Position numbers and translations under genes: made by a program. A stretch of 24,075 nucleotides of DNA, taken from Octopus sinensis. Lineage: Eukaryota. Where the stretch lies: assembly GCF_006345805.1 (NCBI RefSeq), contig NW_021836486.1, positions 1 through 24,075 of the forward strand, written 5' to 3'. Shown in pieces: positions 4,724-24,075 of this stretch. The number at the start of each line of letters is the position of its first letter. Within the stretch, counting starts at the first letter, position 1. The notes under the pieces were generated by a model. That model was not told the DNA's origin, did no database searches, and worked only from the letters and a program-made list of their open reading frames with translations.

Positions 4724-6079
4724 GGCGATATCGTGTTTTAGCGTCTTAAAATCACAAGGGATCAATTCTGATTAGAAATCGCAAATAAATTAATATTATT
4801 ATATTATTTTTTAAAAATTATTATAATTATTTATATGTACAATACTGTGGCAACCCTAAATTAAAATTTTTTTAAAACTACATTTTTACACAGCAACTTA
4901 GTAAAACATGAAAACAGTGAAAAAACTCGAATTATTAAGACAAAGGATACTGAGAATTAATAGTTATTAACATTTTAATAAATGCATTCCCGCCTCCACA
5001 GGGATACGTATCATTTCTCCACCGCCATTCAAATTCCGCCAGATAAGAATTAAAAAGAACACGGGATGTTCCATTCATCCTTTTAGCTTTTTCTTGGCGT
5101 GAGACCACAATGACTCGATTCCCTGCGTATGTGTGGAGCGATTGTTCTGGTCAACAAAATTGCGGCTGTGGTTGACTCTTAAATGATCGGCATATCCTAA
5201 CAATTCGATTCTATTGTAGGCTGGCCAATAATCCTACAGATAATCGATCCGGTCTGTACATGAGTTTGGATTATTGGAATCAGCCTGTCTCGACTCCGAT
5301 CAGGAACTTCGACCAGAAAAATATTCCTAGGGTTGCCCCTCTCTTTTCCACCAACAACCCAATGCCCTTCGTGCCAGGTACCTCTTGCGTATTTTCGATG
5401 AAAATATTTTGTTTCATCCACTTCTACGACAATTGGCAACATAGTTTCTGGTTTTCCATTCCACCGAGAGAACAAGGATGGTCCTCGACCCACTTTACAC
5501 ATACATCACGTAAAAAGTTGCCCCAATCAATTGATGTTTTTTTAAAGTCTGATCGAGATTCTTTGCTGCAGATAATCGTTTCTGAATTGAGTGCCCAAAA
5601 ATAGATATAGTCCAAAATTTTCTTCAATTCAAGATGACTATGTGAGAAAAAGCTGCCATCTCGAATCGATTTTGAGAAATTGCATGTTTTACATTTCCAC
5701 TTTAATTTGTCGAGTCGGGATTTGTCTGAAAGAAGACGGCAATCCGTGCTGCAGTTTTCGCATTTCATCGAATTTTTGATTAGCTGATATTGAGCCAACC
5801 AATTGCCGTATCTGCGTGGTCACTGTTATTTCCACAAAATCTCGGTGTTCAATTCAAATAGTAACAAATCATATGTTGGTTGAGTATTATTAACAATAAT
5901 AGTCGATGCAGACGGCCTTCCGCGAGACATCATTCAAAAATACTGTTAAAGCGTTGCAGATAATAATTATTTTGATAATTATAATAATTTTTAAAAAATA
6001 ATATAATAATATTATTTATTTGCGATTTCTAATCAGAATTGGTCCCTATGATTTTAAGACGCTAAAACACGATATCGCC
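4724..6079 (-). mobile_element. Merlin (IS1016/IS1595-ISXO2-like) DNA transposon, complete
   Basis: About 105-bp TIRs starting GGCGATATCGTGTTTTAGCGTCTTAAAATCA and ending TGATTTTAAGACGCTAAAACACGATATCGCC. Perfect 8-bp TSD GAGAGCCG at 4716-4723 and 6080-6087. Confidence 0.95.
4935..5933 (-). pseudogene. Merlin/ISXO2-like DDE transposase with N-terminal zinc ribbon, several 1-bp frameshifts
   Basis: Motifs CENC...WKCKTC, SIRDGSFF, VEVDETKYFHRKYARG..WVVGGKERG, VPDRSRDRLIPII, D(Y)WPAY, VNHS..FVD, HTQGIESLW and YLAEFEWR. Ends YPLS-TAA. Confidence 0.9.
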
Positions 6080-6467: not shown

Positions 6468-7618
6468 CAGTATGGTCCAAAAATTATTACAGCCCTTGTT
6501 TTTTTTTTGAAAAAATCTTATATCTGTTAGAATAATACATCTATTTAATTATTTTTTTTTGAATTATACTATTTTAGTTTTTAATGGATTTTTCATTTGT
6601 AGAAAATTAAAATGAATTTAATTGTACATATATTTAAAAAAATTAATGAATTTCAAATGGTCCATAAATAGTACACCTTAGCAAATTCAACATCCGTTGT
6701 GCTTTAAAATTACCTAATAAAGTTTTATTTAATATAAAAAATATTTTTATTATTAGTTTATGTTTTTTTATTATTTTAAAGTAATTATTTAATTAAATAA
6801 TTATCTCTTTATCAAAATAATTACATGAACATTCGTGAAGTTGATCTCTTTCAGATATTAAAAATCGTATTCTTTCCTTACACGAGGACAACTATGGACA
6901 CAAAAAAATTGCCAAGAAACTTAAGATTAGCAAGAACACCGTTGCTAGGATTGTACAAAAATACCGAAAAAACGGAATAAACGGCATTTTAATGGAGAAA
7001 GAGGGAGACCGAAGAAGTTATCTATCAGATCTACAATAAAAAGGACACTACATGAATGCAATTTATATGGCCAAGTACCTCGAAGGAAACCATTATTGTC
7101 AAAAGGCAAAAAAAAACCGTTTACAATTTGCAAAAAAATAGTAAAACAAAATATGGATTTTTGGAATAGAATTCTGTGGTCAGATGAGACCAAAATCAAT
7201 TTGTTCGGATCAGATGGAATTCAGCATGTGTGGCGCAAAAATGCCGATGCACTAGTAGCTACAATGAAACATGGCGGCGGAAATATAAAGATATGGGGAT
7301 CTATGAGCTCGCAAGGACCTGGTGAACTTTATATCATAAATGGGATCATGAATGCAGACATGTACATTATATACTTGAGGAAAAAATGATTCCCTTTATC
7401 AACGATCATTCAGGAAATCAGATTTTCCAACAAGATAACGATCCGAAGCATACTGCAAAGAAGACTAAAAGTTTTTTGACTGAAAAAAAATCTTGCAAAT
7501 GGACTGGCCGAGCATGTCGCCAGATTTAAATCCAATTGAACACCTATGGTGCTATTTAAAAAGAAAAATTGAAACATTTGACGTCACAAATAAAAAAAAT
7601 CAGAAAATTTAATTATTG
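6468..7618 (+). mobile_element. Tc1-family (IR/DR type) transposon, left end plus transposase, right end lost
   Basis: Left end TA|CAGTATGGTCCAAAAATTATTACA. An inner direct repeat ATGGTCCATAAATAGTACA lies at about 6657-6675. The sequence is truncated where pogo sequence begins. Confidence 0.85.
6825..7612 (+). pseudogene. Tc1 DD34E transposase, frameshifted, internally deleted and 3'-truncated
   Basis: Paired-like HTH (KKIAKKLKISKNTVARIVQKY...GRPKKLS), then RKPLLS, WNRILWSDETKINLFGSDG, TMKHGGGNIKIWG, FQQDNDPKH and [15 protein letters not shown]. The D-to-E spacing is 34 residues if one A-run indel is corrected. Confidence 0.9.
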
Positions 7619-7627
7619 AACCCCGCC

Positions 7628-7760
7628 CCAACAAAAACCCCGCCTTGGGGCACCCTCGATTTTTGGGACACCCTCGGTTTTTGGGGCGATTTTATTTTTT
7701 AGTACATTTTTCAGCAATAATTTCCAAATTTGGAAATTATCAAAACCCCACTATGGGGCA
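7628..7760. repeat. Subterminal quasi-palindromic repeats of the pogo element (CCC(C/T)CG..TTTTGGGGCAC), probable transposase-binding sites
   Basis: Four to five copies on the left (CCCCGCCTTGGGGCACC, CCCTCGATTTTTGGGACACC, CCCTCGGTTTTTGGGGCG, CCCCACTATGGGGCAC). Further copies lie at about 9434-9470. Confidence 0.7.
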
Positions 7761-7843
7761 CTTTACTAATTTATTTTAATATTATTACATAATATTTTTT
7801 TGAATAATATTATTTTTGAACGTTTGATACTTATCTTTGTTTA

Positions 7844-9242
7844 ATGCCTTCCAAGATTTCTATTGAAAAAAAAATTAAATTTGCAAAGTGTCTACAAACT
7901 TCTTCTGAAATAGAAGTTGCAAAAAAATTCAAGATAAGCAAAGGCACTATTTCCCGAATAAAAAAAAACATTTCTTGTTTCATTAATACCGGATCAGTCA
8001 TTTCAAGATTAGTTCAAATAGATGAAGTTGAACAAGCTTCTAATGAAACAAATCAATTTGAAAAACTTAACGAATGAAAACTTTTCTATTTCGGGTACAT
8101 TAATCAAAGCCATCGCGAAAAAAAATATCGACAAAATTGGATTCTCGAACACCTTTTAAAGCCTCAAACGGTTGGCTAGACAGATTAAGAAGAGACATGA
8201 TCTGGTTTTTAAAACTATTTCTGGTGAAAAAAATTCAGCAGACAAAAGTAATTTGCAAATTTTTTCTTTCAATTTGATAATTTATTGAAAACCTATGGTC
8301 ATGAAAATATTTTTAATTGCGATGAACATTTTGTATGTTAAAAAATTTCCTTCAAGATCTTATGTCGAATCGATAGAAGCATGTCATGGTACGAAATTCA
8401 GTAAAGAAAGAGTAACAGTCCTCCTTTGCTGTAATGCAGCAGGAAAAAATTAAGACCTATTGTTATTGGAAAATACAAATCACCTCGTTGTATGAAAAGT
8501 TGGCTTAATTATATTTGAACATAGATTTTGATTGTGAAAAATTCGGTATTTTATATGCAGCGTCAAAAAATTCCTGGATGAACAGAGAAATTTTTCAAAT
8601 GTGGCTATCAAAGATTAACGACGACTTTCTCTCACAAGATTGAAAAATTATTTTTATAATGGATAATGCTACATGCCATTCTTTATTGGAATACTCAAAT
8701 GTTAAATTGTTTTTTCTTCCAAAAACACAACATCTTTGATTCAACCTCTAGACATGGGTATAATAAAATGTTTTTAAGGTATATTACACAAACTTTTTAA
8801 TGAACTTTATGTCGATTTGAAAAAAGATACAACAATTAATCCTAAATCTTTGAAAAATATAGATATGCGACAGATTATAATACTTGTTAGGAAGTTAAAG
8901 AAACAACAATAATTAATTGTTGGAAGAAAATTGAGGAAAAGAGAAGAATTAGTTGAAGATAAAAATTGCGGGGAAGAAGTCCTGGAAGAAATAATAACCG
9001 AAGTAATATCTGAAGAAAATGAAGATCTAGTCAAAAGTCGCGAATTTTATAATGGAACTGGGATAGAGGACAAAACAACGATATTAGAAACGTATGAAAT
9101 GATGGATAAGTTGGAAAATGTAGCGCAAAATACATCTTTCGAGACACTCCAAAAATATTACGAGTTTAGATTTCAACTTGGAAAAGATTTAAGAAATAAG
9201 AAAAATTTGAAATTGACTGATTATTTCAAAAAAATGTTTTAA
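7844..9242 (+). pseudogene. pogo/Tigger (CENP-B-like HTH + DDE_1, about DD29D) transposase with one 26-nt intron, frameshifted
   Basis: Motifs EVAKKFKISKGTISRIKKN, FKASNGWLDR, KTISGE, IFNCDE, KERVTVLLCCNAAG, VIGKYKSPRC, SWMNREIF, IMDNATCH, TTSLIQPLDMGII, TIINCWKK, and C-terminal KLTDYFKK. Confidence 0.9.
8499..8524 (+). other. 26-nt GT-AG intron in the pogo transposase
   Basis: GTTGGCTTAATTATATTTGAACATAG. Removing it restores PRCMKNFDCEKFGILYAASKNSWM in one frame with family-typical spacing. Confidence 0.75.
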
Positions 9243-9496
9243 AAATAATGACTTATTTTAATCAAAATCAAATTAAAAAACAGAATAGAAATCTATCAAA
9301 CTATAGAGCAAAAAAGCACAACTTATTGTATTATCGGCATATAAACACTTTGAGAGATGTGAAAGAGTTCTTTGTTCGCAAAGTAAACCAAAATTTAAGT
9401 TAAATAAACTATAATTCAATAGTTTGAACCAGACCCCTGTTTGGAAGGGTACCCCGCTTTTTGGGGCACTTTGGTGCCCCACCCCGGGTTAGACTG

Positions 9497-9900
9497 TATT
9501 TAGCGTATTTTCTTGCTTTTGACCTCTTTAGATAGGATTCCGGAACTTTCAAGTAATTCTCTTATGTTCTGGACGTTCCAAACCAGACAATTTTTCCATT
9601 GAAAGGAAAGGTCGTCATACTGTCTGGTCTTCTGCCGTTTTTGCAAAGATCAGGTTCAAGCTTTGTGTGGAATCCGGAATTACGGAGTAACGGGGAAAGC
9701 GTCCAATTCTGTGACAGAAAGAAGAGTGTTAATCAAGTTCATCGACATTTATGTTTGGGCGATACGGGTGAACCGAGAGGTAGGCAGATTCCAATCCTCA
9801 CAGTGGCAACCAGCTGCTTAAAAACATAAGATTTCGGCAAGCACGGCTCAGATTCAAATTACTCATTTTTAAGCATGCCAGCTAGCCCTAGTCTATGCGT
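9497..9900 (-). mobile_element. Degenerate CRE-like retrotransposon fragment (zinc-finger + REL endonuclease region)
   Basis: Pieces translate GICLPLGSPVSPKHKCR, GFHTKLEPDLCKNGRRPDSMTTFPFNGK and CLVWNV, similar to the CRE motif LEP..GKRPDGxTxxPxxxGxxLVWD. It ends SKKYAK at the pogo TA. Confidence 0.65.
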
Positions 9901-10057
9901 TCGTTCAATTTTTCTTATGCTTTGTCCTTGATGAATGATGTGCATTACAATTGGCGAGCTGTATTACATAAAATAAGCAGTCCCAATTTTTTCCAAATGG
10001 TAATGCTTTTAAAATTGTTTATTTATTTAATCTTTTTGGAATTTTGTACACACTTAT

Positions 10058-10332
10058 TTATTTATTTTTAGCAGTAATTATTCCTCTGAAAATCCCAATC
10101 ACTTGAAAGTGTTGCTCATTTCGATTACATCCACTGCGATTCCATCCTCCAAAGTGAGACTTCCGAGAATCATTTCTCCAATCTTGTTGGGTACTGAAAT
10201 AGCTGTGCATGTTGCTCTGTCTGTACATATCTGCTCCTGATTGTACTGTTTGAATCTCATACCTGAATTATCCTCGTTTTGGCAATTACATGGAATTCTC
10301 ATACAATTACAGTTTGGGTTAACTCCTGCCAT
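10058..10332 (-). CDS. Candidate small Cys-rich protein gene (77 aa unspliced, or about 82 aa with a 26-nt intron)
   Basis: Starts MAGVNPNCNCMRIPCNC. CCAAT and TATAAATA lie 35-50 nt upstream and AATAAA repeats lie downstream. No recognisable homology. Confidence 0.35.
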
Positions 10333-10365
10333 TTGTGTACGTCAAAGTCTAAATAATATCGGCAG

Positions 10366-10383
10366 TATTTATAGTCGGATTGG
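10366..10383 (-). promoter_or_regulatory. Putative CCAAT + TATA box upstream of the small ORF
   Basis: Minus strand reads CCAATCCGACTATAAATA, ending 33 nt before the ATG at 10332. Confidence 0.3.
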
Positions 10384-10534
10384 GGCGATTCGACTTAATA
10401 AAGTCGGCATTTCAAACAAAGTTTAGAATTTTCTTATCTTGAATGAAAATCAAAGGAACAAGACTGGCTTGACGGGTAATTTAATTTTATTGTAAGAAAA
10501 TATTTTTTTAATAATCTATTCTTATAAGAAGCTA

Positions 10535-11281
10535 CAGTGCACGACAAAAGTAACCGGACAAGCCGAAATTTCCATTATTTTAGCCAATTTTAATGCTTTT
10601 TTAAAAAAATAGCTTCTTATTAATTAAAATATTCATTAAATAATATATTTACTTTTTTAATTTCTTTTTTTTTGAATAATCCATTAAATTTAAAGCACAC
10701 TTATTAAATGTAGGTGACAAAAGTAACCGGACACTTTTCAGTTTTTCGCCAAAATTACATTTTTTTAACCTTTTTAGGGGTACACACATGTCAGATTTTG
10801 TTAAAGGACAAATAATTGCCTTTAAAATCAAGGAATCAAAGTTCTTTCATGGCCCGCCCAATTACCTGATCTCAATCCCATTGAGCACGTCTGGCATATA
10901 TCAAAAGAAAATAGATGAAAAAACCCCAACATGTCACAATGATCTAAAAGAGGAAATTATCCAAATTTGAAGATCAATCCCGATAGAGTTCATACAAAAA
11001 CTAATTTTATCAATGAAGGATAGAAGCTACGCAGTGTATAATGCCAAGGAGGCAATTCTAGATTTAATTTTTGATTATTTTTAACTGTCCGGTTTCTTTG
11101 TCGCACCTCGTATTATTTATGCTTTAAATTTAATGTACAATTGAAAAAAGATTAAATTAAAATGTAAAATTGTTTTTCGTGTAAATTAATGTACAAAGGG
11201 TGATTTATGTGAAAAAAAGTTTTAAAATGACTTAAAATAATGGAAATTTTGGCTTGTCCGGTTACTTTGTGTCGTGCACTG
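10535..11281 (+). mobile_element. Non-autonomous, internally deleted Tc1 element with about 200-bp IR/DR ends
   Basis: Ends TA|CAGTGCACGACAAAAGTAACCGGACAAGCC ... GGCTTGTCCGGTTACTTTGTGTCGTGCACTG|TA. Inner DRs lie at about 10714-10734 and 11087-11107. The remnant ORF fuses N-terminal MSDFVKGQIIAF to [15 protein letters not shown]...DLKEEIIQI..SIP..KLILSMKDR..AV...GG. Confidence 0.92.
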
Positions 11282-11509
11282 TATTTAACTAATATTATTT
11301 GACTTTAGTGAGAAAACTGGTGAATAAATAAACAAAAAAATTTTAGACTAAACTGATATAATAATTAAAGATTTTACAAAATAATAATAAATCTGATACT
11401 TTTACATCATAAAATCGAGTGTTTATATTATTATCATTATGCATTGGTCATCAAAAACACGGTTTTGATGTCTTAACGGTTTTGAGGTCTTAATTAGTTT
11501 TATAAGCAA

Positions 11510-12290
11510 ATCTGCCAAATTGGTGTTTTTGTGGAGACCATCGGAGTCTATCAACTTTCAGCACTTGTACAAGTGGTATTGACATAAAAAGATTCCGAGT
11601 CGTAGACAGGTACCAAGTCAAACTGACTCATCATCCAAGAGTAAACTGGCTGACGATAGTAGGGCGGAATTTAATCAGTCTTCTGAATGTGGTTCCGCAG
11701 CTGCGTTAATGGAGGCGAGTTTGATTGATCGGCCTTTTTTTCAAACATTCCACGATCTTTTTACTGCCAGCTCGTGGATGACCATACCAAATGCACTTCA
11801 AATTTCGTAGGCAGAAAAAAATTCAGTCAGTTTGAAATGTTCACAGAGGGAAAAGAACAGAATTGACAAAATAAGTCACACAAAGATAGTTTTTAGTGTG
11901 AAATAGCTCCACATATGCACCAAGTTCGGAGAATTGTTCCATGCTTAGAACTAACTCACGTTTCTTATCCGCAATAGCAGTGGAAATCCCTCGACCAAAG
12001 ATTGGCAAACCAAGGACAAACAGATCTTTTGGAGTTTTCAATCTGAGACCGGCAACCTTCTCAGAAAGGAATGCGAAAGCCTGGTCAAATAGAAAAAGCA
12101 TAGTGAACCCCGACTTGAACAATTGAGTGATAGACCGATTTGGCCAAAGTCCAAAATAATATCAACGTATGGATATCGTCAAGATACCAGAAATTGAGCG
12201 GGCTTGACAGCCATTGGGCAATATGGTCCATTGGGAAGGCAAATAGGAGAAATCCTAATGTATCCCTTTGCTGAACCCCAGACACTCAGT
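11510..12290 (-). mobile_element. Degenerate CRE-like retrotransposon fragment (RT motifs 4-7 and downstream region)
   Basis: Motifs GVQQRDTLGFLLFAFPMDHIAQWLSSPLNFWYLDD, AGLRL..LFVLGLPI, then AAAEPHSED*LN...LLDDESV*LGTCLRLGIFLCQYH. Confidence 0.75.
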
Positions 12291-12560
12291 CAAATATCTG
12301 CACTCTCAATGCATGTCCTATCTTCTTTATGTCCACCAAATAATCACTGCAAAGTTCTTATTTTCTCTCCGCTATTTTGTACAGCACCTTGTCCATCACC
12401 ATGCATGTTATTTCCCAGTCGTGCTACCACATGGTCCTCCTCTGTTCCTCCTCTGAAAATATGGCTTGATCCACCTACCTAATAGCTATTCACCAGGTGG
12501 GGTAATATGTACGACATGTACACACACAACACATAAATAGTCAACCTCTTTTCTCATCTG
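12290..12560 (-). mobile_element. Highly degenerate RT fragment of another non-LTR element
   Basis: Pieces in different frames read EEQRGG..GST and AV..VDIKK, resembling RT motifs 2-3. Confidence 0.3.
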
Positions 12561-12599
12561 AGTGTCTAAAAGAAAAAAACAAGGGTTCCCCTATTGAGT

Positions 12600-13115
12600 G
12601 TCTTAATTATTGTTGCCAGCCATACCATGTCTTGTCGGTCGTTCTTCAGTTCTGGACATAACAGGAGATTGCCCAAGCATATCTGGAGAAGCATGGACTC
12701 CGTTCCCACATTGAAGATTTCATCAACTTTATAGTGATGATCAAGCGCATTCGGACCAAGAGGGAAACTGCTGGTCCCCATCGACCAAGTGGACAACATC
12801 ACCGAATTGATACACCAAGTTTGTCTCAGTCAAGGAGTGGACCCCCAAATTCTTATTTCCTTATTTCCTTCAACTTCTAATGTACCTAGCGCTGTCAAGT
12901 CCAGACGGATATCTTCAAATCCTGGGACGACTATTTGATTGACTGTTAAAGAGACAAGAATGGGGCACAACCTCCCCAATTCATTCAGTACAGCTTCTTT
13001 AAGATCAACTGACCGCATTGCAGGAGCTCCTTGAGTGTATTCTGCACGACAATGGTCGCTCGAACGTTTACAGCTTTGTTCTTGATATCGACTCCGGAGT
13101 GATGAGTTAAACAAT
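12600..13115 (-). mobile_element. Possible degenerate LINE ORF1 (gag-like) fragment
   Basis: Pieces read YQFGDVV, LVRMRL, FNVG and GQSP, resembling the ORF1 pattern YGxV...RxVRMxL...IP....YxGQP. The sequence is GC-richer than its flanks. Confidence 0.3.
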
Positions 13116-13129
13116 TTTATGCATCACTA

Positions 13130-13690
13130 TCTATTCAAAGGACACAAAAGCGTCGGAAAAACGGTTTTCCAGTTACATTGAGGTGATAAAGTGGTGGTGC
13201 ATTAGTAAGCGGCTCTCGCTGGCCATTGACAAATCTGCCTACCACCAAATCAATTCAAGAAACTGACCGGATCAAAAACATCGCCAAATAATGGAAATTG
13301 CTCGCCTTAACTGTTTACGGTATCTGGGACTTACAATCGATGCTAACTCGGGCTACTACCTGCATGGGATAATCCTAATGAAATCGAAAAATACTGTGCT
13401 ATGCGCTGAAACTAGCCTATAGGCTAGATTCACGAAGCCCAGTTTCAAGCTGGGCGAGACTAAGTCCTCGGAGAAGAGGCAGACCATGAAGAATCTTTCC
13501 GGGGACGAATTCTGGTGACCGACTCATTTATGAGCGGGATCAATAACAGACTAACTTGCCTTCAGACAGAAAACCTGACGCCCCTCCAATGATCTCGATT
13601 ACCTCGATCAATTGTCTCGTTTATTTTTCCGACCTAATTGTTGTCATTCTCCTCTTTGTCTTACAATAAAAATTTTTCGTTTCGTTTTGT
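13130..13690 (+). mobile_element. 5'-truncated, internally deleted second copy of the LINE family at 1958-6305, opposite orientation
   Basis: Direct nucleotide similarity to the reverse complement of 1970-2680: TACATTGAGGTGATAAAG vs TACATTGAGGTAATAAAG, CTTACAATCGATGCTAACTCGGGCTAC vs CTTACGATCGACGCTAACTCGGGCTAC. Both copies end TTACAATAAA. Confidence 0.85.
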
Positions 13691-13695
13691 ACGAA

Positions 13696-14320
13696 TCAAT
13701 ATTTGAAAAATGGATACTTTACTATTAAATGATAAACATTAATGAATATAGCAATAAACCACGTAATAAAACCACTAATTAAATTTAGAACTATCTTCTT
13801 AAAGAAGGGTTTATTAAAAACTGAAATTAGTTTTATTATGACACACTTTCGTACTAATATAACTAAAAATTGAATCAATCTGCAAAAAAAATAATCAGTT
13901 TCCTTTTCCGATTTAAAATTAATTTTTAACAAATCTGAACTTTCTGAAGTTTGTCGAATATTCCGGTCTTTTAAATATCATAGCCATAATAACTGTTACT
14001 GAGAGCTACAATGTCCTCTAATTTACAGTCTCTTTAAGATAATCAAAGTAACTTACGGAGTTGATGCAAGTCGGCAATAAACTGTATCTTCATTTAGAGG
14101 AAGTTCTTTCTAGATGTGAAATAAAGATAAAAGAACCAGAAGGTCGGACTCAGTGAGTTGATTTTTCATATATTCAAAAACCTATTTAATGATGTTTGAG
14201 AATTCTAACTGTTTTAATTCCTCGTTGGAATCAGAATTTTGGCGTAATAATTTTAATATTTCCAAAAACACTTGGAATAAACCTGAACAGACATACAAGC
14301 GCGAATATATTCTTTTAATT
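13696..14320 (-). pseudogene. Probable host gene or gene remnant with several 25-34-nt introns, unknown product with hydrophobic C-terminal part
   Basis: GT-AG segments at 14182-14209, 14110-14136, 14032-14056 (GTAAGT donor) and 13821-13854 remove the in-frame stops. The model also needs 2-3 homopolymer indel corrections. Confidence 0.4.
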
Positions 14321-14529
14321 TAATTTTACACAAAATAATAATAATTTGAATAAATTGAAATTAAATATATTGTGTTATAAACTTTGGGAGACTCATTGAA
14401 AAATTTATAAGATACAGCAAAGCTATAAAAAGACAAACTATCTTTTCCCTTGATATTTCATGTGGAATAAAAAAAAATTTACAATTATAGTCTGCTAGAA
14501 ATCCAAGTTGGATTTTATGGGGTGACAGA

Positions 14530-14735
14530 TAATACGACTAGCTGTCGTATTTGTTCAAACGACAGTCATGAAACTACAGAAACAATTATTTTCACAGTAT
14601 TTAATTAGCAGCAGAGGATAATGGAATGGCAATTCCCACGCCAAGATGGATATTGATATGCGTGGAAAAGCCCGATGATCATTTCTCCTTCTGCTTGCTA
14701 GGTCGCCCAGTTTAATAAGGAATTTTTTAGTTATT
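14530..14735 (-). mobile_element. 3' tail of a further CRE-like retrotransposon
   Basis: Translates TKKFLIKLGDLASRRRNDHRAFPRISISIL/RGNCHSIILCC*(TAA at 14605-14607) with one frameshift. Confidence 0.65.
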
Positions 14736-15548
14736 TGACAGATAATTGTAAATAAGCGAATCTCAAAGTTAAAAGTGCAAAGCATCATGTAATAAGATAT
14801 TTTGAAATGTCAATTACAATTTATTTTTTATATGCCAATTCTATTAAATTATCTGTAAAAAATACAGAGAAACGTCTCAGTTACTAAAATTTATTGAATT
14901 TTATTTTTATTAGATCTAGAAAATAATTATTTAAGAAACTTTTCCTATGATTGGACCTTGTTGTTACAAAATACGGCTTTTAATAAAGTAATAATATTTT
15001 GTATTTTAGAGCCTTATTTCATGATGCATGAGATGCACAAGTACCGAAATCTTATCATAAAGATGCATTTTAAAATGAATTTTTTAAAACTTTTTTACAA
15101 AAAACGGATTCGCAAAATTTTAAAAATTTTCATATTTTATTGCTGTCAAAATTTATTTTGACTTTTAAAAAGTAAAAAACATTATCAATGTTCGGCTTTA
15201 TCATCTTCTACTTTAAGACGATTTCAATACTTTGACTTTAAATATACACGATGTGACTTGCCGTTTCACCGATATGTTGTATGAAATGGAATTAACTGAA
15301 TAATGGATATACAGTTCTTATTTCGCATCAGAATTCCATTAATGTACTGTTTTTAAACGATATCAGAGGACTTGTATGCATGCATGAATTATGCATGCAT
15401 GACTTGAGTGGTCAGTCGATCATGAATAGAAGTCACGCTGTCACAAACAGGAAATATAGATAAGAAACCTTGATTCTAATACCTGAGCAGGATCAAACGT
15501 CACTGAAAAGGGGAAAATTTGAAGAGAATTTGGTAGAATTGACTAATG

Positions 15549-16861
15549 CAGGCCTGGCCAACCCAAATCGCATCGCGGGCACTTTGTCCAAATGAATCCT
15601 TTCCGCGGGCCGCATATACATGTACATACTAAGGATAGATATCAAACAACACAGATAAGATTTATTTAGTAAAATAGCATTCAGTCCAATTATACGTATC
15701 AATGAGAAATCTGTTTTTCTTTATCTTCACTTAATTTTTTCAAATCAACTTCACAATTACTAGTTGCCCATCTTAATTGGTTTTCTAAGTTTTTATCTGT
15801 TAAAGAAGATCTATATCTACTTTTACTAAACTTTAATTTCGAAAAGAATGATTCACATACATTTTTTATGCTTCTTGACTCCATCTCATCCATTATTAGC
15901 TTTACAACTCCTTTATTTCTTCCAATCATAGCCGGCGCCCCATCTGTTGTCAATCCAGCAAGGTCTCTAATTCGCTCCATTGTCGGATAAACATTTCATA
16001 ACAGCTTGGAAAATATCTTCGCCCTTTGTAGTATCTTTCAAACTGACAAGGTTAAGCATTCTTGTTTCACTTGAAAAGATTCGGTAACTCCACGAATATA
16101 TACTACAAGTTGAGACGTTGTCTGATATATCCGTGCATTCGTCAAAGGCCAAAGAATAACTTTTGAAATATTTTATTTGATCACGCAAAGTCACCACAAT
16201 TTCATTTGAAATGTCATTAACCCTGCGACATATGGTTGACGTGACAAGCTAATGTTTGAAAACTTTTTAGTTTTATCTGGCAAAATGTCTTTCACGACAG
16301 CATCCAAACACTCTTTACGAATTCTCCATCCGAAATGATTTCATTCTCTTTGAAATTATCATTGCAACAGAGTAGCTTGCTTTAACAGTATCAGAAGAAG
16401 AGTGTATCGATGAATTTAATAGTCTTTGCGGATTTCTCAATTCAGATTTAAGCGAATCCAGTTTCCTTGTTTTCAATTCCTTACTAAATTCGCGTATTCG
16501 GAATGCTTGTTTTCATATGTCTTCTTACATTGTACTCTTTCACCACCGATACTTTCTCCTTGCAAATTAAACATGTTGGCTTGGAATTATGCATTATAAA
16601 AAAGTAATCTCTTCCCAATGATTGCTGAATTGCCTGTTTTCTTCAAAAATTTTCCTTTTCTTCATATTGATAACAGCTACAAAAATAGATAAACTTTAAA
16701 ATTTATTAAACTTATAAAATTTATCTTTATTTATTAAACTTAAGAAAAATTTATCTTGAATGTATTTATAGGTTAACTACATACAAAATTTCTCTCGGGG
16801 CCGCACCAAACTCCATCGCGGGCCGCATGCGGCCCGGCGGGCCTTGGGTTGGCCAGCCCTG
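15549..16861 (-). mobile_element. hAT transposon (SPIN/Charlie, GTF2IRD2/EPM2AIP1-like), internally deleted
   Basis: TIRs CAGGCCTGGCCAACCCAA / TTGGGTTGGCCAGCCCTG (one mismatch). Perfect 8-bp TSD GACTAATG at 15541-15548 and 16862-16869. Subterminal CGCGGGCCGCA repeats are present. Confidence 0.95.
15699..16665 (-). pseudogene. hAT transposase with in-frame internal deletion and frameshifts
   Basis: Motifs MKKRKIFEENRQFSNHWEE, PTCLICKEKVSVVKEYNVRRH, YSLAFDECTDISD, SLKDTTKGEDIF and TTDGAPAMIGRNKG. These are fused directly to CESFFSKLKFSKSRYRSSLTD...QISH*. Confidence 0.9.
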
Positions 16862-17164
16862 GACTAATGATTGACGAATAATTAAAATATTGGAGCAGAC
16901 TAAAACTGTCATTGATTAGCTTGTTTACTTAATAATTAAAGTAAAATACTTATGGCCATATGGATAGGAATTTATAAACCTGCTTTCATATGCTACTGTA
17001 AAATGCTACAGGCTAAAAAAGTCAGGTAATGAAACAAAAGAAACAAATAAGGGGGAGTTGTAGTAAATGCAACCCTCAGTGGTTGCATGGGGCATAAAAA
17101 GGAAACGCCTCTTTTTTACACAAAAAAAATTCAATTTTCATGGAAGTTCATTTTTCAACTTCAA

Positions 17165-17405
17165 CCGGACAGCTACCGCGTTACGGAAATCGCCCTGGAG
17201 ACCACTGGAGCTGCGGGAAAGGAGACTGACTCGTTTCTCAACGAGGTCGGGCAGTCCATTGGGAGGAGGCTCAAGGACACGAGAGAGGGCCTCTGGTTCC
17301 GCCAGCGCATCGGTCTGACCATTGTTCGGGGCAACGCACACTGCGTCCTTGCCGCTGGGACTTAACGATTTTCGTTGTTGATATTTAAGCTAAAAATAAA
17401 AAAAT
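17165..17405 (+). mobile_element. GC-rich 3' tail of a CRE-like retrotransposon
   Basis: Translates YRVTEIALETTGAAGKETDSFLNEVGQSIGRRLKDTREGLWFRQRIGLTIVRGNAHCVLAAGT*. An A-rich tail lies at about 17392-17404. Confidence 0.8.
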
Positions 17406-17511
17406 TAACCAGAAATAACTTTATTAACCTACAAACTAAAAAAATTAACTTGAAAATTTAACTTAACTAAACAGTAAAAACACAAATAATTTTTGTTACA
17501 CATACAAATTA

Positions 17512-17640
17512 CAAATCAAATCAAATCAAAATTTATTCCAAAGACCACCGTTAACCAAAAAAAAACTAACTAAGGTGATCCCGACGATTTGATCATTGCT
17601 CTCAGCTTCGCTCTGTGCTGCTCTCTTAAGCTCACACAAG
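17512..17640 (-). mobile_element. Short LINE 3' end with (GATTT)n tail
   Basis: Minus strand reads GGAATAAATTTTGATTTGATTTGATTTG, a polyA signal followed by a pentanucleotide tail, preceded by a short GC-richer stretch. Confidence 0.45.
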
Positions 17641-17706
17641 TTCTAAAATTTAGAATAATGAGAAAAAATCTAAATGCTTCATAATTTTAAAATGTCAAAA
17701 CAAGAA

Positions 17707-18046
17707 TTTTCTGAGGAGCAAGCCTGTCTGCACAGTTCATTTGTGATTAGAAGACCTAATTTTAGAGATTGAAACGAGAAATAGCAATGAGATCTGTCAA
17801 ATTATTACCCCCCTCACAACCTAAACCAAATTACCGTCCAGTATTCAATTGATTTTACTTTTTCTATTAAGATCTACTTATAAATTATTTTATGGGATTC
17901 AATGGAAAACTTTAGTTATTTCAATTTTAATTTTAAATAATGTTAAAATTTTAAATCATTTAATAAATATATTTGTTGATGACAGGCTTGTTAGATGTAA
18001 AAGTCGCGTCTAGCGCTCGGTCGCTCGCTGCGCTCGCGACATATTA
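17707..18046 (+). mobile_element. Possible non-autonomous Helentron-type (HINE/DINE-1-like) element
   Basis: A T-run is followed by subterminal IRs CAAGCCTGTC (17719-17728) and GACAGGCTTG (17981-17990), then a GC-rich hairpin at 18003-18040. No TSD. Confidence 0.4.
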
Positions 18047-19911
18047 AATAGGCCTTCAACAATTAAGGTTGTTTTAGAAATTGGTTGTGATTATCTTTGT
18101 TTTTGCAGTTAAGATGCACATATTCATATTATATCAATAATTCTATAATGTCAAAACCAATAATAAATTAATAGTTAATCAGAAACTAAGCAGATCTCAC
18201 TCCAGCTCGCTGATATCCACTCTCCTTCTCTTGGAAGAAGAGTCTACTTCCAGCTGCCTCTTACTCCCCCTACCACATCTGATTCAATCATTGCATCTTC
18301 TTTAGCATTCATTGGGTCGTCTTCATTTTTGCATGCCATCTCCACATACCGGTTGGAAGCAGAAGCGTATTCTTCACCAGATACCTTCATTCCGTGCTTG
18401 TGTTCGATCATCATACTCTCGAGCGTTCTTTCAGTACAACGGATTGGATGTATGTCCTCGTTCCTGCTTCATAGATAGTTTCTTCATATAATTTTTGAAG
18501 CATTTCGAGACAACTCCATCCCATGTCTAACCACACCACAGGAATTATTTTTACTTGACAGCTATACAGAAGCGAAAGCTCACTTGCAATAGGTCATACT
18601 TGTGACACTTTTCAACCTCCACTTGCTTGAGGCGATCCTGTGAAGTAATACCCACTTCAATTAGATTTATTTTTTCTGACTTTGTCGTGGACAAGATATC
18701 TGGCTTTTATATTCTACTTTTGTTTCGGTGAGGATTGTAGAATCAACCCGATTTCAACTTTTCCCGTCGACAGTGTTGACTGAACAGAATGTCCCTTCAA
18801 TCGTCTTGCTTTTTTGAGTCCATACATTCGGCACAAGTAAGGTGAATACACTTCACAACTTCGTTGTGTCTCCGGAGATAATCACTGTTGAGCATTTTAC
18901 CACACTGAGTAGCCATGTGGTCAACAGTTTTCTTGCTTTTCTTACAATGATTGCATAATGAGTCAGCGGATGCAAAGAACAAGTTTCGATCTTGCAAAAG
19001 ACAATACAATGCTTCGCTTCGTGGCCCATTATTTCCATTAGATAGCCATTCTGAGGATGCAGGTAATCAACATTAGGTTCATCCACACATTTGAAAAGCA
19101 CAGAATGTAGTGCTTTAGAACTAATTTTCTTTTGTAATATTGTATCTGACTGGACTTTAGAGACTCTATAGTAATACTCTTCTTATCAATAATTGCATAT
19201 TTGGAGGATAGAAATCCTGCGATCATAGCCAATGCCATTTATTCATTTTAATTACACGCAGAATCCCCGCCCTCCGTAAGCATATAGTTGACATATTTTC
19301 CAGACTCGTAAGGAACTGAAGAGAGCTTAGTTCACTTTTGAAAGTAACTGATGAAAGCCCTCTTCCAAGAGCCTTCCGGTTTAAATACAGTCTCTCTTTA
19401 TTTGCAGGTTTGAGATGTAATCTGAGCGACGTAAGCAATTGCCGTATTTGTCTGTCAATATCATCAAATTCAGAAGGTTCAATATTGATTAGCCCAATAT
19501 AATAATTATATAGTGACAATGCATATTCATTTATAGCACGAAACAGATTCACAGAGTTGAGTTTTGTTTTCGATAGCATAGTTATCCTCTTCTTAACATT
19601 CTCAAAGATAGAGTCCATAACTCTATTCTTAAGAACATTGCTTCCACCATCTTCAAGTACACCCAAATACCGATATCCATTGATTCCATCAATAGTCTTA
19701 CAACATGATAATGATTCCAAATTAGACGCTGATTTTTCTGAATCATCTCCAAACCAACAATTTTAAAAAATCCGTTAACAGCTTCCATCATTTTGAGTAA
19801 AGTGTCTTGTTTGAGAGCAAATATTTTTAATCGTCAATAATAGCAAATGATTAGTAGAATATGTGTGACAGTCCAATAAAATACACGCCGAATAATCTAC
19901 ACTTGTCACAA

Positions 19912-21351
19912 ATGGCTGAAAAATTAGAAATCTAAAAATTAGTATGAAAAAAATCAATAATTGATTATTTATTTTAGTAGAATCACATTATTTTTTATTT
20001 AAAAAGCGTGAAACATGCGTGTAGTGAGATATTTAAGGAAACACTGGACAAAATCAAAGAAATGAAAGACTCCAACTTTGATACATCGTCAATCGAGCGG
20101 CATGAGCGATACAGGCTCACAAATTTGGGAAAGAATTTCCATTTTGAAAATGGAAAAACATATTTTCGAAAAAATGGGCTTAAATTGCGTTTTTTCTGTG
20201 AAGATGAAATCGAATTAAAGCTTAAGTGCGTTGAGGTCCAACTTAATAAATAAAATTTAGGCGGAACATAACTATAACCACTTTGGGAGAGACCGGCTTT
20301 TTTCGAAATTAAGAAATCTCTATTGGGATTGAATAGAGAAGAAATCTCTAAGGTGATTTCGAATTGTGCTTTCTGTCAGGTAATAACTCCTTTTAGTAAA
20401 TATTCTTAGTCGAAAAAATTATTGTCTACGAAGCCTCCGATTACGCCAATCATTTCAAGGAGATGTAGGGACAGATACATTGCGGATTTAATTGACCTCA
20501 GAAGATATTCGGTTGAATGATGGCTTTAGCTGGGTATGAATTTAATGTTAATATAGATTTTGGTAATTGTGGATTCTTTTTCCAAATATGTAATGCTTGA
20601 ACTGTCGGTGACCAAATCTTCTGAAAAATCGCAGATTTATTCCAAAATTTTTTTATTATGTCGGGCCTCCGCTTATTCTACACACTGATAATGGAAGGGA
20701 ATTTTGCAATTCGCAAATGGATGCTCTATGTACGAAATATGGTATAAAACATGTACGTGGGAGGCCTCGTGCTCCTTGGGTACAAGGGCAAGTCGAAAGG
20801 TTAATGATTTAAAATCGATTTGTAGATTTAATCAAAGCATAAAACGCTGGATATCGTCGGCAAGTTCTTCTCAAAATTGTTTTGGACGATATCGCGAATG
20901 CATAAAGGACATCGTGTATGATTACAATAACAGCATTCATTCTTCGACAAAAAAATCCCTTTTTATATATTCATGGGTTGAAAATCCTGGAAGGATTGAT
21001 GAAGGGGGAATGGAGCAACTTTTAGCCTATGATTCAACTGGATTATCAGAGGCACGAGAAAGTGCATTAGAAAACTTAATTATTGCTGGCGAAAAAATGA
21101 TTGAAAAAAGAAAATGGAGATACGACGAAGAAAATATCAATGTCGGACGACTGTGCTTTTAAGGTCTTAAGCGTCAAATTATTTTTAGACAGGACAACGA
21201 TGCCAATGTTCGGCAGTATCCGCTGTACGATGGACTTGATGTTAATAAGTATATTGTTGTCGAGCGAAGAAATGATCTCTATGTTATCGAAAAGGAGGAC
21301 GGTGAGCGGTTACACGGAATTCATATTTCTCGATTAGCTAAAATTGATTAA
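19912..21351 (+). CDS. HHCC + DD35E integrase-like transposase, multi-exon, with a few 1-bp indels; start uncertain
   Basis: Spliced product contains EHNYNHFGRDR...CAFCQ, KPPITPII, RYIADLID, WILVIVDSFSKY, GPPLILHTDNGREFCN, GRPRAPWVQGQVERFNQSIK, YNNSIHSSTKKS and TVLLRQDND, ending ISRLAKID*. Confidence 0.85.
20236..20260 (+). other. 25-nt intron
   Basis: GTCCAACTTAATAAATAAAATTTAG joins CVE|AEHNYNH. Confidence 0.8.
20380..20409 (+). other. 30-nt intron
   Basis: GTAATAACTCCTTTTAGTAAATATTCTTAG ends in an in-frame TAG. Removal joins CAFCQ|SKKLLSTKPP. Confidence 0.8.
20534..20556 (+). other. 23-nt intron
   Basis: GTATGAATTTAATGTTAATATAG joins DGFSW|ILVIVDSFSKY. Confidence 0.85.
20800..20825 (+). 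other. 26-nt intron
   Basis: GTTAATGATTTAAAATCGATTTTGTAG region. Removal restores the conserved QGQVER|FNQ. Confidence 0.85.
21164..21188 (+). other. 25-nt intron
   Basis: GTCTTAAGCGTCAAATTATTTTTAG joins TVLLR|QDNDAN. Confidence 0.65.
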
Positions 21352-24075
21352 TTTTCATAAATCCATAATAAAAATAATTTTTTATTTAAATTAACGATAA
21401 ATTTTATATGAAAATTTATTAGATAACCTAAAATGGAATAACAATATTCAAACGTATAAGTTAACTGCGTAAATTGAGTGTGGTTGGTTTTTTATATAAA
21501 TTAGTAAAAAAGGTTAATGAATTTTACATTAAAAATCATATTTTAATAATAATTAACATTTTTTTTGTGTAAATTTTTAATTCAGTAAAATTAAAGAATG
21601 TAATTATTCGGCGTGTATTTTATTCGGACTGTGACAGAATATGTTAACATATTGGGATCTTCCTGGTTATTTCAAGTTTTGGAAACACGGAATTAAGGAT
21701 CCTGCTTAGAGGATCTAATACCATAACACAAATAGTAAAGGAGACAATGAGTCTCCCTGTAAAATTCCTCGGTTAACTAACTTCACTGATCCCATTCTTC
21801 TACCTTCCATATGCAGCTTTACTGCCCACTTCTTAACTACGCTCTTCCAAAGTTTACGATCCAAAGCGGGATTCCAGAACAATCCAAAACGTGAAACAAA
21901 AAATCATGATCAACTGAGTCATATGCTTTCTTCACATCGACCCAAGCAGAATAAAGGCCATTCCCGTACTCCTTGTTCAAACATTGGTTAATGAAAGCTT
22001 GCTCCTTGGCGCCTTGACAATACTTCCTCGTTCCAAGTTGTTTGTCTGAAATTAGGCCAAATGCCTCGACAAAATCAGCCAGTTTTACATTAACACATTT
22101 GGTGACAAGTTTATACATGTCGGCATACACGTTATAGGACGTAAGTCCTTCAGGGTCTCACAATCATCTTTTTTAGGAATCAAATATGTTATTCCAGTGT
22201 AAAACCAACTTTCAGGCATGTACTCTCCATTAATTATTCGGGTTATCTCGTGACACAGAATCCATGTAATGACTCCATCTTCTTAATGAAAAAGTTATCT
22301 ATCCCATCACATCCACATGCCTTCCAGTCAGGAAGATAGTTAATAACATTCCAAAACTCTTCCGTAAACTCTGGAAGCATATGTTCAGCACAAGTAGTTC
22401 GTTTTCCAACAACGTCATAAGATTGAGGCCTCTCATTTCTCTCGCTCCAGACTTTTTGCCAAAAAGAGACACATTCTTCATCATCAAATCCATACAGCGT
22501 CACTTCCTCTCTTTCTTTGTTAAGTCTCGATAGAATCTTTTTCGATTTAATTCAAAGCACTGATTATCCTTACGAAATTTCTTCTTCCTTGAATTATGAA
22601 CTTCTATTTTCTTATTGTTAATCCTAATCAGGTCTTGCAATAATATCTGAATCCTCGACAGCTCACCTTTCTTAGTTTTCTTATACCCATAGCGACAGAG
22701 AACATCCATTACCTTTTGCTTTTCAGATGGAGGTAGTGTTTGATTGGAATGGGAATTAACAATTTCCAATTCTGCAGATAATTTTGAAATTTTCTTTTCA
22801 ATATTTTCTACCCATGTGCTCTGTGCTTTGTCTCTCATGGTTAGAGATAAATACGCACATTGAGGCAGCATATAGAATATCAGAAATGCTATTGATATCA
22901 TTAGGATGATTATCTTTCGTAATATAATATATCGCCGAATTCAATCCTGTCAATATATCAGTTTTCAAATATTTATTTTGAATTTTTGGTTGGTTTACGT
23001 GAATCCCTTGGAATCGATTCAATATTCTTAATTTGTATATTCAACTCTTCTAGACACTTTCTAAAAGTGGAAATTTCTGAGCTCTCAAGAAATTGCTTCT
23101 GATGGCAATTGCTTCCATAATTATTATCCACTCTCATTGGTTTAACCATTCCTTTGAGTTGACTGAGACTTGCACTCTTCGAGAATTTTGAATTAAACTT
23201 CTCACGGATAAGGTTCCATCCACCTCTGGTATCCTCCCAATTCTTTGCTTCGTGCATAAACAATCTGAGGCACCCACTCAGCTTCAGAAACACAAATAGC
23301 ATCATCGATAATGGCCGAAAGGGAATGCAAGTTAGTTGGGATAGTAGGATTCCCCAGCAATTGGATTGTCATGATACTAGTCCTTGTGCTGTTATCCCCC
23401 CAGAGACGACACTCTCTGCACTTGTTATGTTATTTTTATCCTTTTTCGCAGGAAGGCCCCTAGGATTCGATTTCCTCATATCATTAGGAACGGACATGCA
23501 CAACACACAAACAACTTTTTTTTTTCATATTATATAAATAAATGACATTTTTTAAAAGTGTAATATAATAATTATTTGATTTTTTCAAATTGTGTTTCTA
23601 GGATAAAAATTAACACATTTTAAACTTTTATAAATTGACCTAAGTCAATTTTGTTGAATAGGAAATGGAACAATTTTCTTTATTTTTGTTTTTTCAAAAA
23701 ACTTAAATAGATGATTATTCTTTAACTCCAGTATCAGGGAATTTGTATAAAGAAAAGTCCACAACAAAGAAGAAAAATTGAAACTAGTAAAGATTGAACT
23801 TTTCCTTGAGAGAACGTTTAATATCGCTCTTTCTATTGGGTATGGTGAAGGTTTGCAATCTACTGTTATTAAATAATTGGAGAGAATTTTTTACGGAAGG
23901 TTGCTAAAAGAACTGACATCTCTATAAGGCTCAACCCAAATAAAATATTTTAAAAGAATGTCAATGTCCACTGAACGAATCACGCCGTTGAATGGACCAA
24001 TATAAAAATGTCATTTTAATCAATTCTATCCATATAAAATATGTTTTATTTTTTTCTAAATATGTCTTGAGTCCC

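Follow-up and report, generated by a model that had tools for sequence, protein, structure and literature searches.

Micro-introns of 23-30 nt in a pogo transposase and a Ginger2-like integrase on an Octopus sinensis contig of probable dicyemid origin

Micro-introns in the transposons of the window

The window analysed in this study, i.e. the whole stretch of 24,075 nt at positions 1 to 24,075 of contig NW_021836486.1 (Octopus sinensis assembly GCF_006345805.1), consists of 24 kb of nested transposons with a GC content of 36.3% and frames in the standard genetic code. The transposase gene of a pogo/Tigger-like element, the integrase gene of a Ginger2-like element and a host-like gene fragment contain seven supported introns of 23-30 nt (median 25), all of them GT-AG and each with a different donor hexamer. 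With good confidence we regard these inserts as ordinary spliceosomal micro-introns. They would belong to a dicyemid (likely Dicyema japonicum or another species of that genus) whose DNA probably entered the O. sinensis assembly as a contaminant.

An initial annotation, made from the letters of the window, had described an AT-rich class of GT-AG introns of 23-34 nt in both transposases and in probable host-gene remnants. Pattern-only intron calls were rejected, because GT followed by AG 23-34 nt downstream occurs more than 1,100 times in this AT-rich window (567 on the forward and 571 on the reverse strand); homology was used as the test instead, with protein-to-DNA alignments that allowed inserts of any length and gave splice signals no bonus. 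Micro-introns with GT/AG borders were recovered in this way in the pogo transposase and in the integrase, and all six donors that the annotation had named (GTTGGC, GTCCAA, GTCTTA, GTTAAT, GTATGA and GTAAGT) map to GT...AG segments. The AT-rich character was borne out as well (72-83% AT in the seven introns versus 62% in the integrase exons), and the proposed size range holds for 23-30 nt, with no intron of 31-34 nt confirmed in the window.

The pogo/Tigger-like element (7620..9496, forward strand; open reading frame at about 7844-9242) contains a DDE_1 fragment (Pfam E 2.8e-4), and its identity is supported by alignment scores of 756-887 to the Tigger-like proteins P0014 and P0018, of which P0014 matches DDE_1 (E 2.9e-39) together with the Tc5-type helix-turn-helix domain HTH_Tnp_Tc5. 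TA follows its right end; the left end is apparently truncated, leaving one end for a check of the TA duplication. The 26-nt intron described for this gene (8499..8524, forward strand, phase 1, donor GTTGGC) appears as an insert with exact GT/AG borders against all three homologs aligned (P0014, P0015 and P0018), and the span aligned to P0018 shows no further insert of intron size. At this site no interruption is present in five gene models of a sister pogo family, which lie on small O. sinensis contigs. Intron-bearing pogo elements are known, for example Drosophila pogo.

The Ginger2-like element (19864..21636, forward strand) is a cut-and-paste transposon of 1,773 bp with the integrase as its sole gene; it is inserted in a non-long-terminal-repeat (non-LTR) element, and its empty site was recovered in run X1 as a joint from 19829 to 21636. 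It encodes a Gypsy-like DDE integrase (rve), contains neither reverse transcriptase nor RNase H, and has TG...CA termini in the register of a 7-bp duplication (GAATATG, at window 19857-19863 and 21637-21643), a 9-bp register with G...C ends fitting equally. We file it only as Ginger2-like, because both its inverted repeats of about 33 bp and its 7-bp duplication lie off the published norms of 50-180 bp and 4-6 bp. Its relatives are named KRBA2/SCAND3-like by their sources, and KRBA2/SCAND3 have been tied to Ginger2 (PMC3575427).

Of the five introns annotated in the integrase gene, all on the forward strand, four were recovered by splice-blind alignment. Intron 1 (20236..20260, 25 nt, phase 0, GTCCAA) corresponds to an insert of 25 nt with three of four homologs and of 22 nt with one, shifted by up to 13 nt; intron 2 (20380..20409, 30 nt, phase 0, GTAATA) is an insert of 30 nt with all five homologs spanning the site; intron 3 (20534..20556, 23 nt, phase 0, GTATGA) is one of 23 nt with six of seven. 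For intron 4 (20800..20825, 26 nt, phase 2, GTTAAT) eight of ten homologs give the 26-nt insert. The exceptions at introns 3 and 4 are gene models that read through: P0001 with a 9-residue V...Q insert at site 3, and P0001 and P0010 at site 4, where P0001 has the same 8-residue off-frame read-through with a sequence different from that of the window. Intron 5 (21164..21188, 25 nt, phase 2, GTCTTA) is not one clean insert in the splice-blind alignment, owing to a 1-nt gap at about 21148; after a 1-nt frame fix its spliced junction aligns without gaps to L001, a metagenomic relative described below. The mean exon of this gene is 201 nt. An AT-rich 36-nt GT-AG segment at 19942-19977 precedes the probable start of the integrase and may be an intron of the 5' untranslated region.

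The third gene is a host-like fragment on the reverse strand, in which an exon (13888..14031) with about 90% identity to P0011 (residues 482-530) adjoins a 25-nt intron (14032..14056, GTAAGT), the match to P0011 starting at the acceptor; at least two copies exist. P0011 is probably a chimeric gene model with a leucine-rich repeat (LRR) part and a Myb-like part, and an atlas search on the match returned only generic LRR and Myb leads, below 0.9. A second candidate at about 14182-14209 was dropped, as its removal does not restore the frame. One micro-intron in host-like sequence thus stands; the label "remnant" is doubtful, because the frameshifts are likely assembly errors, as discussed below.

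For five inserts each to have a GT-AG segment of equal length by chance within a tolerance of 13 nt, the joint probability is about 3e-7. In six of the seven inserts the length is not divisible by three; the seventh, of 30 nt, ends in an in-frame stop. An exonic AG stands directly before the GT in four of the five integrase donors, compared with 1 of the gene's remaining 51 GTs (p = 7e-5). A YTRAY-like word lies 12-22 nt from the intron end in five of the seven, a count with no background comparison and weak in AT-rich DNA. The observation of micro-introns is thus confirmed, and judged from the sequence the inserts are very likely micro-introns of a host with reduced splice signals; the putative definition of introns by length in this host is plausible. 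The U2-type spliceosome of the host would pair a GT, which often follows AG in the exon, with an AG some 25 nt further on, using a weak, A-rich branch site and little other signal. Transposase production would then depend on micro-intron splicing by the host, since with the inserts left in the frame is shifted at six sites and meets a stop at the 30-nt one.

Assembled contigs over the introns

The contig comparison covers runs X1, X2, X3 and X8, i.e. four of the ten runs that contain part of the stretch; counts refer to the 31 pieces listed (2,862 further pieces exist), for which net gap counts are given. Eight listed pieces span a candidate intron by at least 15 nt on each side: three with a loss of exactly its length, one with a loss of 19 nt and four in which removal is not seen. 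As indirect evidence for splicing, net losses of exactly the intron length were found for intron 1 (X2 record 13, 25 nt), intron 3 (X2 record 15, 23 nt) and the host-like intron (X3 record 17, 25 nt). If X2 is a DNA run, these short contigs would stem from copies without introns, and splicing in the past would still be implied. Leaving aside a contig of X3 taken up below, and with X2 record 14 counted, five listed pieces lack exact intron removal: X2 record 14, with a net loss of 10 nt and 11 substitutions, and X1 record 7 and X8 records 26, 30 and 31, in which an intron is retained (the host-like intron in X8 record 26, intron 5 in X1 record 7 and X8 record 31). Intron 2 is retained in the listed contig spanning it. 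Among the non-spanning pieces, 1 of 23 loses at least 19 nt. This piece, X3 record 20 (window 18190-19275), is by net count 60 nt short in a Dong/R4-like non-LTR element, probably owing to a copy-specific deletion. No loss or joint of 23-30 nt occurs among the best-supported rows listed in two contig tables (224 and 54 further rows).

Origin of the introns

The initial annotation had suggested that two transposon superfamilies had been resident long enough to adopt micro-introns; adoption by whole superfamilies is not supported, sister families of both pogo and Ginger appearing uninterrupted at these sites. P0004 and P0007, two integrases from small O. sinensis contigs, have no interruption there and group among Dictyocoela-like proteins; they are nearer to P0002 and P0003 of the microsporidian Dictyocoela (up to 62% identity over 186 aa) than to the window family (44%). 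This likeness is a possible sign of transfer between parasites. Intron status in homologs was judged from protein models, their DNA unseen, and since annotation left such introns unspliced in P0001 and P0010, the uninterrupted sister families are probably intronless at these sites. P0001, at 66-69% identity to the window integrase, reads through inserts at sites 3 and 4 that are unrelated in sequence, and these two sites would be older than the split of the window and P0001 families.

A metagenome scan yielded one integrase relative, L001, among 77 candidate stretches; scans of viral contigs for Tc1, hAT and integrase found no relatives. L001 has a GC content of 30%, and its frame opens once four GT-AG inserts, all with GTT donors, are removed, at 748-778 (31 nt), 1596-1623 (28 nt), 1793-1836 (44 nt) and 1870-1905 (36 nt). 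None of them lies at any of the five sites of the window, although one is 8 nt from site 4. An insertion of about 250 nt inside the same gene (L001:955-1205), with a 52-nt hairpin pair, resembles a miniature inverted-repeat transposable element. In a midpoint-rooted tree of 11 fetched rows, L001 groups with the window and P0001 (100/100); the order within this clade is weak (83/82), and L001 has an unusual composition. In the comparison of intron positions with homologs from other taxa, for which the initial annotation had called, none of the eight outside proteins is interrupted at a site that it spans, and the introns of L001 lie elsewhere.

One alternative is that the introns are ancestral to the transposon lineages, shrank in this host and were lost in the sister families. 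We regard it as unlikely, albeit the best of the alternatives. Ginger1 transposases contain 1-4 introns, some conserved in position (PMC2836005), the window family and P0001 have two sites in common, and introns of Dicyema host genes are described as having shrunk at conserved positions (PMC13644364). On the other hand, a member of the same well-supported clade has four introns at none of the window's five sites, and the eight outside proteins, known as protein models with their DNA unseen, are uninterrupted where they span. Repeated gain or fast turnover is favoured over simple shrinkage, on thin sampling. In the mechanism that we propose for the dicyemid micro-introns, they would have been gained family by family in transposon lineages of micro-intron hosts and not superfamily-wide.

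A bolder version of this scenario is offered tentatively, as a possibility to which we give limited weight: the Ginger2-like clade may gain micro-introns fast and de novo in each micro-intron host, with lock-in to that host, the uninterrupted sister families being recent horizontal arrivals. If so, the five sites would have arisen in dicyemid families and four different ones in the host of L001, and introns that a normal animal spliceosome could not remove would lock the families into the parasite and block their transfer to the octopus. The position of the uninterrupted sister families nearer to microsporidian elements would then reflect recent horizontal arrival, and with this clade intron gain in animals could be followed in a multi-copy system that can be dated.

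Identity of the host

Dicyemids were among the candidate lineages named by the initial annotation, and they give the best fit by host species, GC content, intron sizes, weak donors and repeat classes, so that we consider a dicyemid as host of the window highly probable. Specimens of D. japonicum came from the renal sac of O. sinensis, and the genome of this species is reported with 36.7% GC, 49% repeats, 6.2 introns per gene and a mean exon of 198 nt (PMC6736024), close to the 36.3% GC of the window and to the five introns and 201-nt mean exon of the integrase. The repeat classes in the legend of the D. japonicum Fig. S2 (CRE, Dong-R4, Jockey, RTE, TcMar, hAT and Ginger) are close to the set found in the window. 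The median intron of Dicyema sp. is 27 nt (PMC6543705), and in a survey of 51 animals introns below 30 nt were reported only from myxobolids and D. japonicum, the latter with a donor logo "GTa", an acceptor "AG" and intron lengths of 22 (Q10), 24 (median) and 32 nt (Q90) (PMC13644364). All seven window introns fall within the 22-32 nt typical of dicyemids, with a median of 25 versus 24 nt, and all seven have GT-AG ends with reduced donor and acceptor like the logos of that survey.

The proteins nearest to those of the window carry the label O. sinensis, and all come from contigs of between 64 kb and 1.3 Mb. They comprise LOC115228165, which is the same as the window integrase except for corrected frames, as well as three further integrases, eight models of Tigger type and P0011. 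In the O. sinensis models P0001, P0010, P0011 and P0018 micro-introns are read through or unrelated pieces are fused: P0011 joins an LRR part with a Myb-like part, and P0018 a non-LTR endonuclease with pogo. Models of this kind are what a mis-annotated contaminant would be expected to give. A dicyemid genome is likely present on small contigs of the O. sinensis reference, with gene models that would be wrong because introns below 30 nt are read through.

It is improbable that the introns are real and the host is another micro-intron parasite of the octopus, such as a myxozoan, a relative of microsporidia or a protist. The nearest named integrases are microsporidian, and L001 indicates micro-introns of this transposon clade in some other organism; microsporidian introns, however, are few and have strict donors, and the frames of the window follow the standard code, unlike those of Paramecium. 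Kudoa is a myxozoan genus that occurs in octopus. Myxobolid introns have a median of 22-27 nt and the same reduced signals, but those of K. neothunni are longer, with a median of 50 and a minimum of 28 nt (PMC13644364). D. japonicum, by contrast, matches the octopus host species, the GC content and the repeat classes.

Decay, octopus DNA and the weight of the evidence

Still less credit is due to the view that the inserts are products of decay, i.e. small insertions in dead copies, with the shorter contigs as chance deletions, a reading that we hold to be very improbable. The many 1-nt breaks in the frames of the window, the sheer number of GT-AG pairs of suitable spacing and one contig that loses 19 nt instead of 23 would agree with it. 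Against it stand the exact GT/AG borders obtained without splice scoring, the three exact-length contig losses, the inserts of unrelated sequence at the same positions in P0001, and the deep DNA contigs, which keep intron 5 and supply the missing bases. These contigs (run X1, records 4-7) have 0-2 substitutions but 1-6 extra bases each relative to the window, about one missing base per 100 nt, for which reason the scattered 1-nt frameshifts of the window are likely long-read assembly errors; decay was rejected as their cause. That the window is genuine octopus DNA and the octopus spliceosome copes with introns of 23-30 nt is hardly credible, since the records labelled O. sinensis that would favour it all come from small contigs (64 kb to 1.3 Mb), the inserts are read through in the gene models P0001 and P0010, and the 51-genome survey reports such introns only from myxobolids and D. 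japonicum (PMC13644364).

Several points weigh against our reading of the inserts as dicyemid micro-introns. Donors have A at +3 in three of the seven introns, fewer than the published "GTa" logo suggests. The host identification is circumstantial, and the closest named integrases outside Octopus are microsporidian (Dictyocoela muelleri). The LINE (long interspersed nuclear element) and hAT labels of the window, which enter the match of repeat classes, are presumptive. None of the ten runs is recorded as RNA (for X2, DNA is a guess; X3 has no type on record), and the position of a loss within a contig is not printed, only the net gap count. X3 record 23 (window 20475-20646) loses 19 nt, not 23, over intron 3. 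This may reflect an alternative splice site or a different copy. None of the pieces listed shows the pogo intron or integrase intron 2, 4 or 5 spliced out.

Other transposons and the dating of families

Pfam matches in the window comprise the rve integrase (E 3.5e-10), a Tc1-type helix-turn-helix domain, the DDE_1 fragment, a weak IS1595/Merlin DDE domain and reverse transcriptase; an Rfam scan gave zero matches. The labels Jockey, CRE, Dong/R4 and hAT are presumptive, being drawn from motifs together with the 8-bp duplication and not from a family search. A Merlin-type element lies at 4724..6079 on the reverse strand, with long inverted repeats and an 8-bp duplication (DDE_Tnp_IS1595, E 0.0054). 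Two Tc1-type copies are on the forward strand, one at 6468..7620 with an HTH_Tnp_Tc3_2 match, outside the range considered by the initial annotation, and one at 10535..11281 with inverted repeats and 745 internal nt missing. The hAT-type element (15549..16861, reverse strand) has an 8-bp duplication, an internal deletion at about 15860 and no Pfam match. A cysteine-rich open frame of 80 aa without a Pfam match lies within a multi-copy stretch (10102-10341, reverse strand). The transposon families of the window look young.

The absence of introns from the Merlin, Tc1 and hAT coding regions had been taken by the initial annotation as a possible mark of later arrival, which is not supported. The absence itself holds for the retained parts of Tc1 and hAT: no insert occurs in the catalytic stretch of the first Tc1 copy aligned to SB100X (query residues 41-144), and the listed contigs over 15549-16797 of hAT lose 0-1 nt, with no micro-intron seen. 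Parts of both are deleted and cannot be scored, i.e. the 745 letters between the sides of the joint 10827-10834 in the second Tc1 copy and the internal deletion of hAT; the homolog search for Merlin found none. Tc1, hAT and Merlin families are usually intronless anyway. Dating by lack of introns was rejected, because intron status differs within pogo and within Ginger, and it is better compared per family than used to date superfamilies.

Comparison with known systems

The micro-intron class itself and introns in Ginger transposases are already in print. In the literature searched, outside which most subscription papers fall, we found no report of micro-introns in DNA transposons of dicyemids, of dicyemid contigs in the O. 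sinensis reference or of a comparison of the L001 type, and the string "transpos" has no match in the main text of PMC6736024 and PMC6543705. What is described here is mostly a known trait of dicyemids in a new place, and its main value is practical and comparative: where transposons carry micro-introns at host density and at sites specific to their lineage, the gain and loss of introns could be measured in an animal of the micro-intron type.

Compared with other pogo/Tigger transposons, the window element has the DDE_1 transposase and TA at its intact end, but differs by its single 26-nt intron with the weak donor GTTGGC, which is not present in the sister-family models. With Ginger1, Ginger2 and KRBA2/SCAND3 the integrase element has in common rve with H2C2, TG...CA ends, inverted repeats and the lack of an internal reverse transcriptase (PMC2836005, PMC3575427), and transposase introns, one to four per gene, were already known from Ginger1 (PMC2836005). 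It differs from Ginger2 by its five introns of 23-30 nt, its inverted repeats of about 33 bp and its 7-bp duplication, and from GingerRoot, whose duplication is mostly 6 bp with TA ends (PMC6839031). Introners likewise link transposons with intron gain; the window introns, however, lie inside transposase genes, have no common sequence and are not a repeated intron family, i.e. the seven are unalike, in place of the many near-identical copies at unrelated sites that mark introners. Myxobolids (Thelohanellus, Myxobolus and Henneguya) have introns with a median of 22-27 nt and the same reduced splice signals (PMC13644364), but they are parasites of fish and annelids to which only the intron type points here. 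The closest likeness is to the micro-introns of dicyemids, with weak GT-AG donors, a median of 25 versus 24-27 nt and about five introns per gene (PMC6736024, PMC6543705, PMC13644364), AT-rich sequence, a mean exon of about 200 nt and 36% GC, the difference being that those were published for host genes, whereas the introns of the window lie inside DNA transposons.

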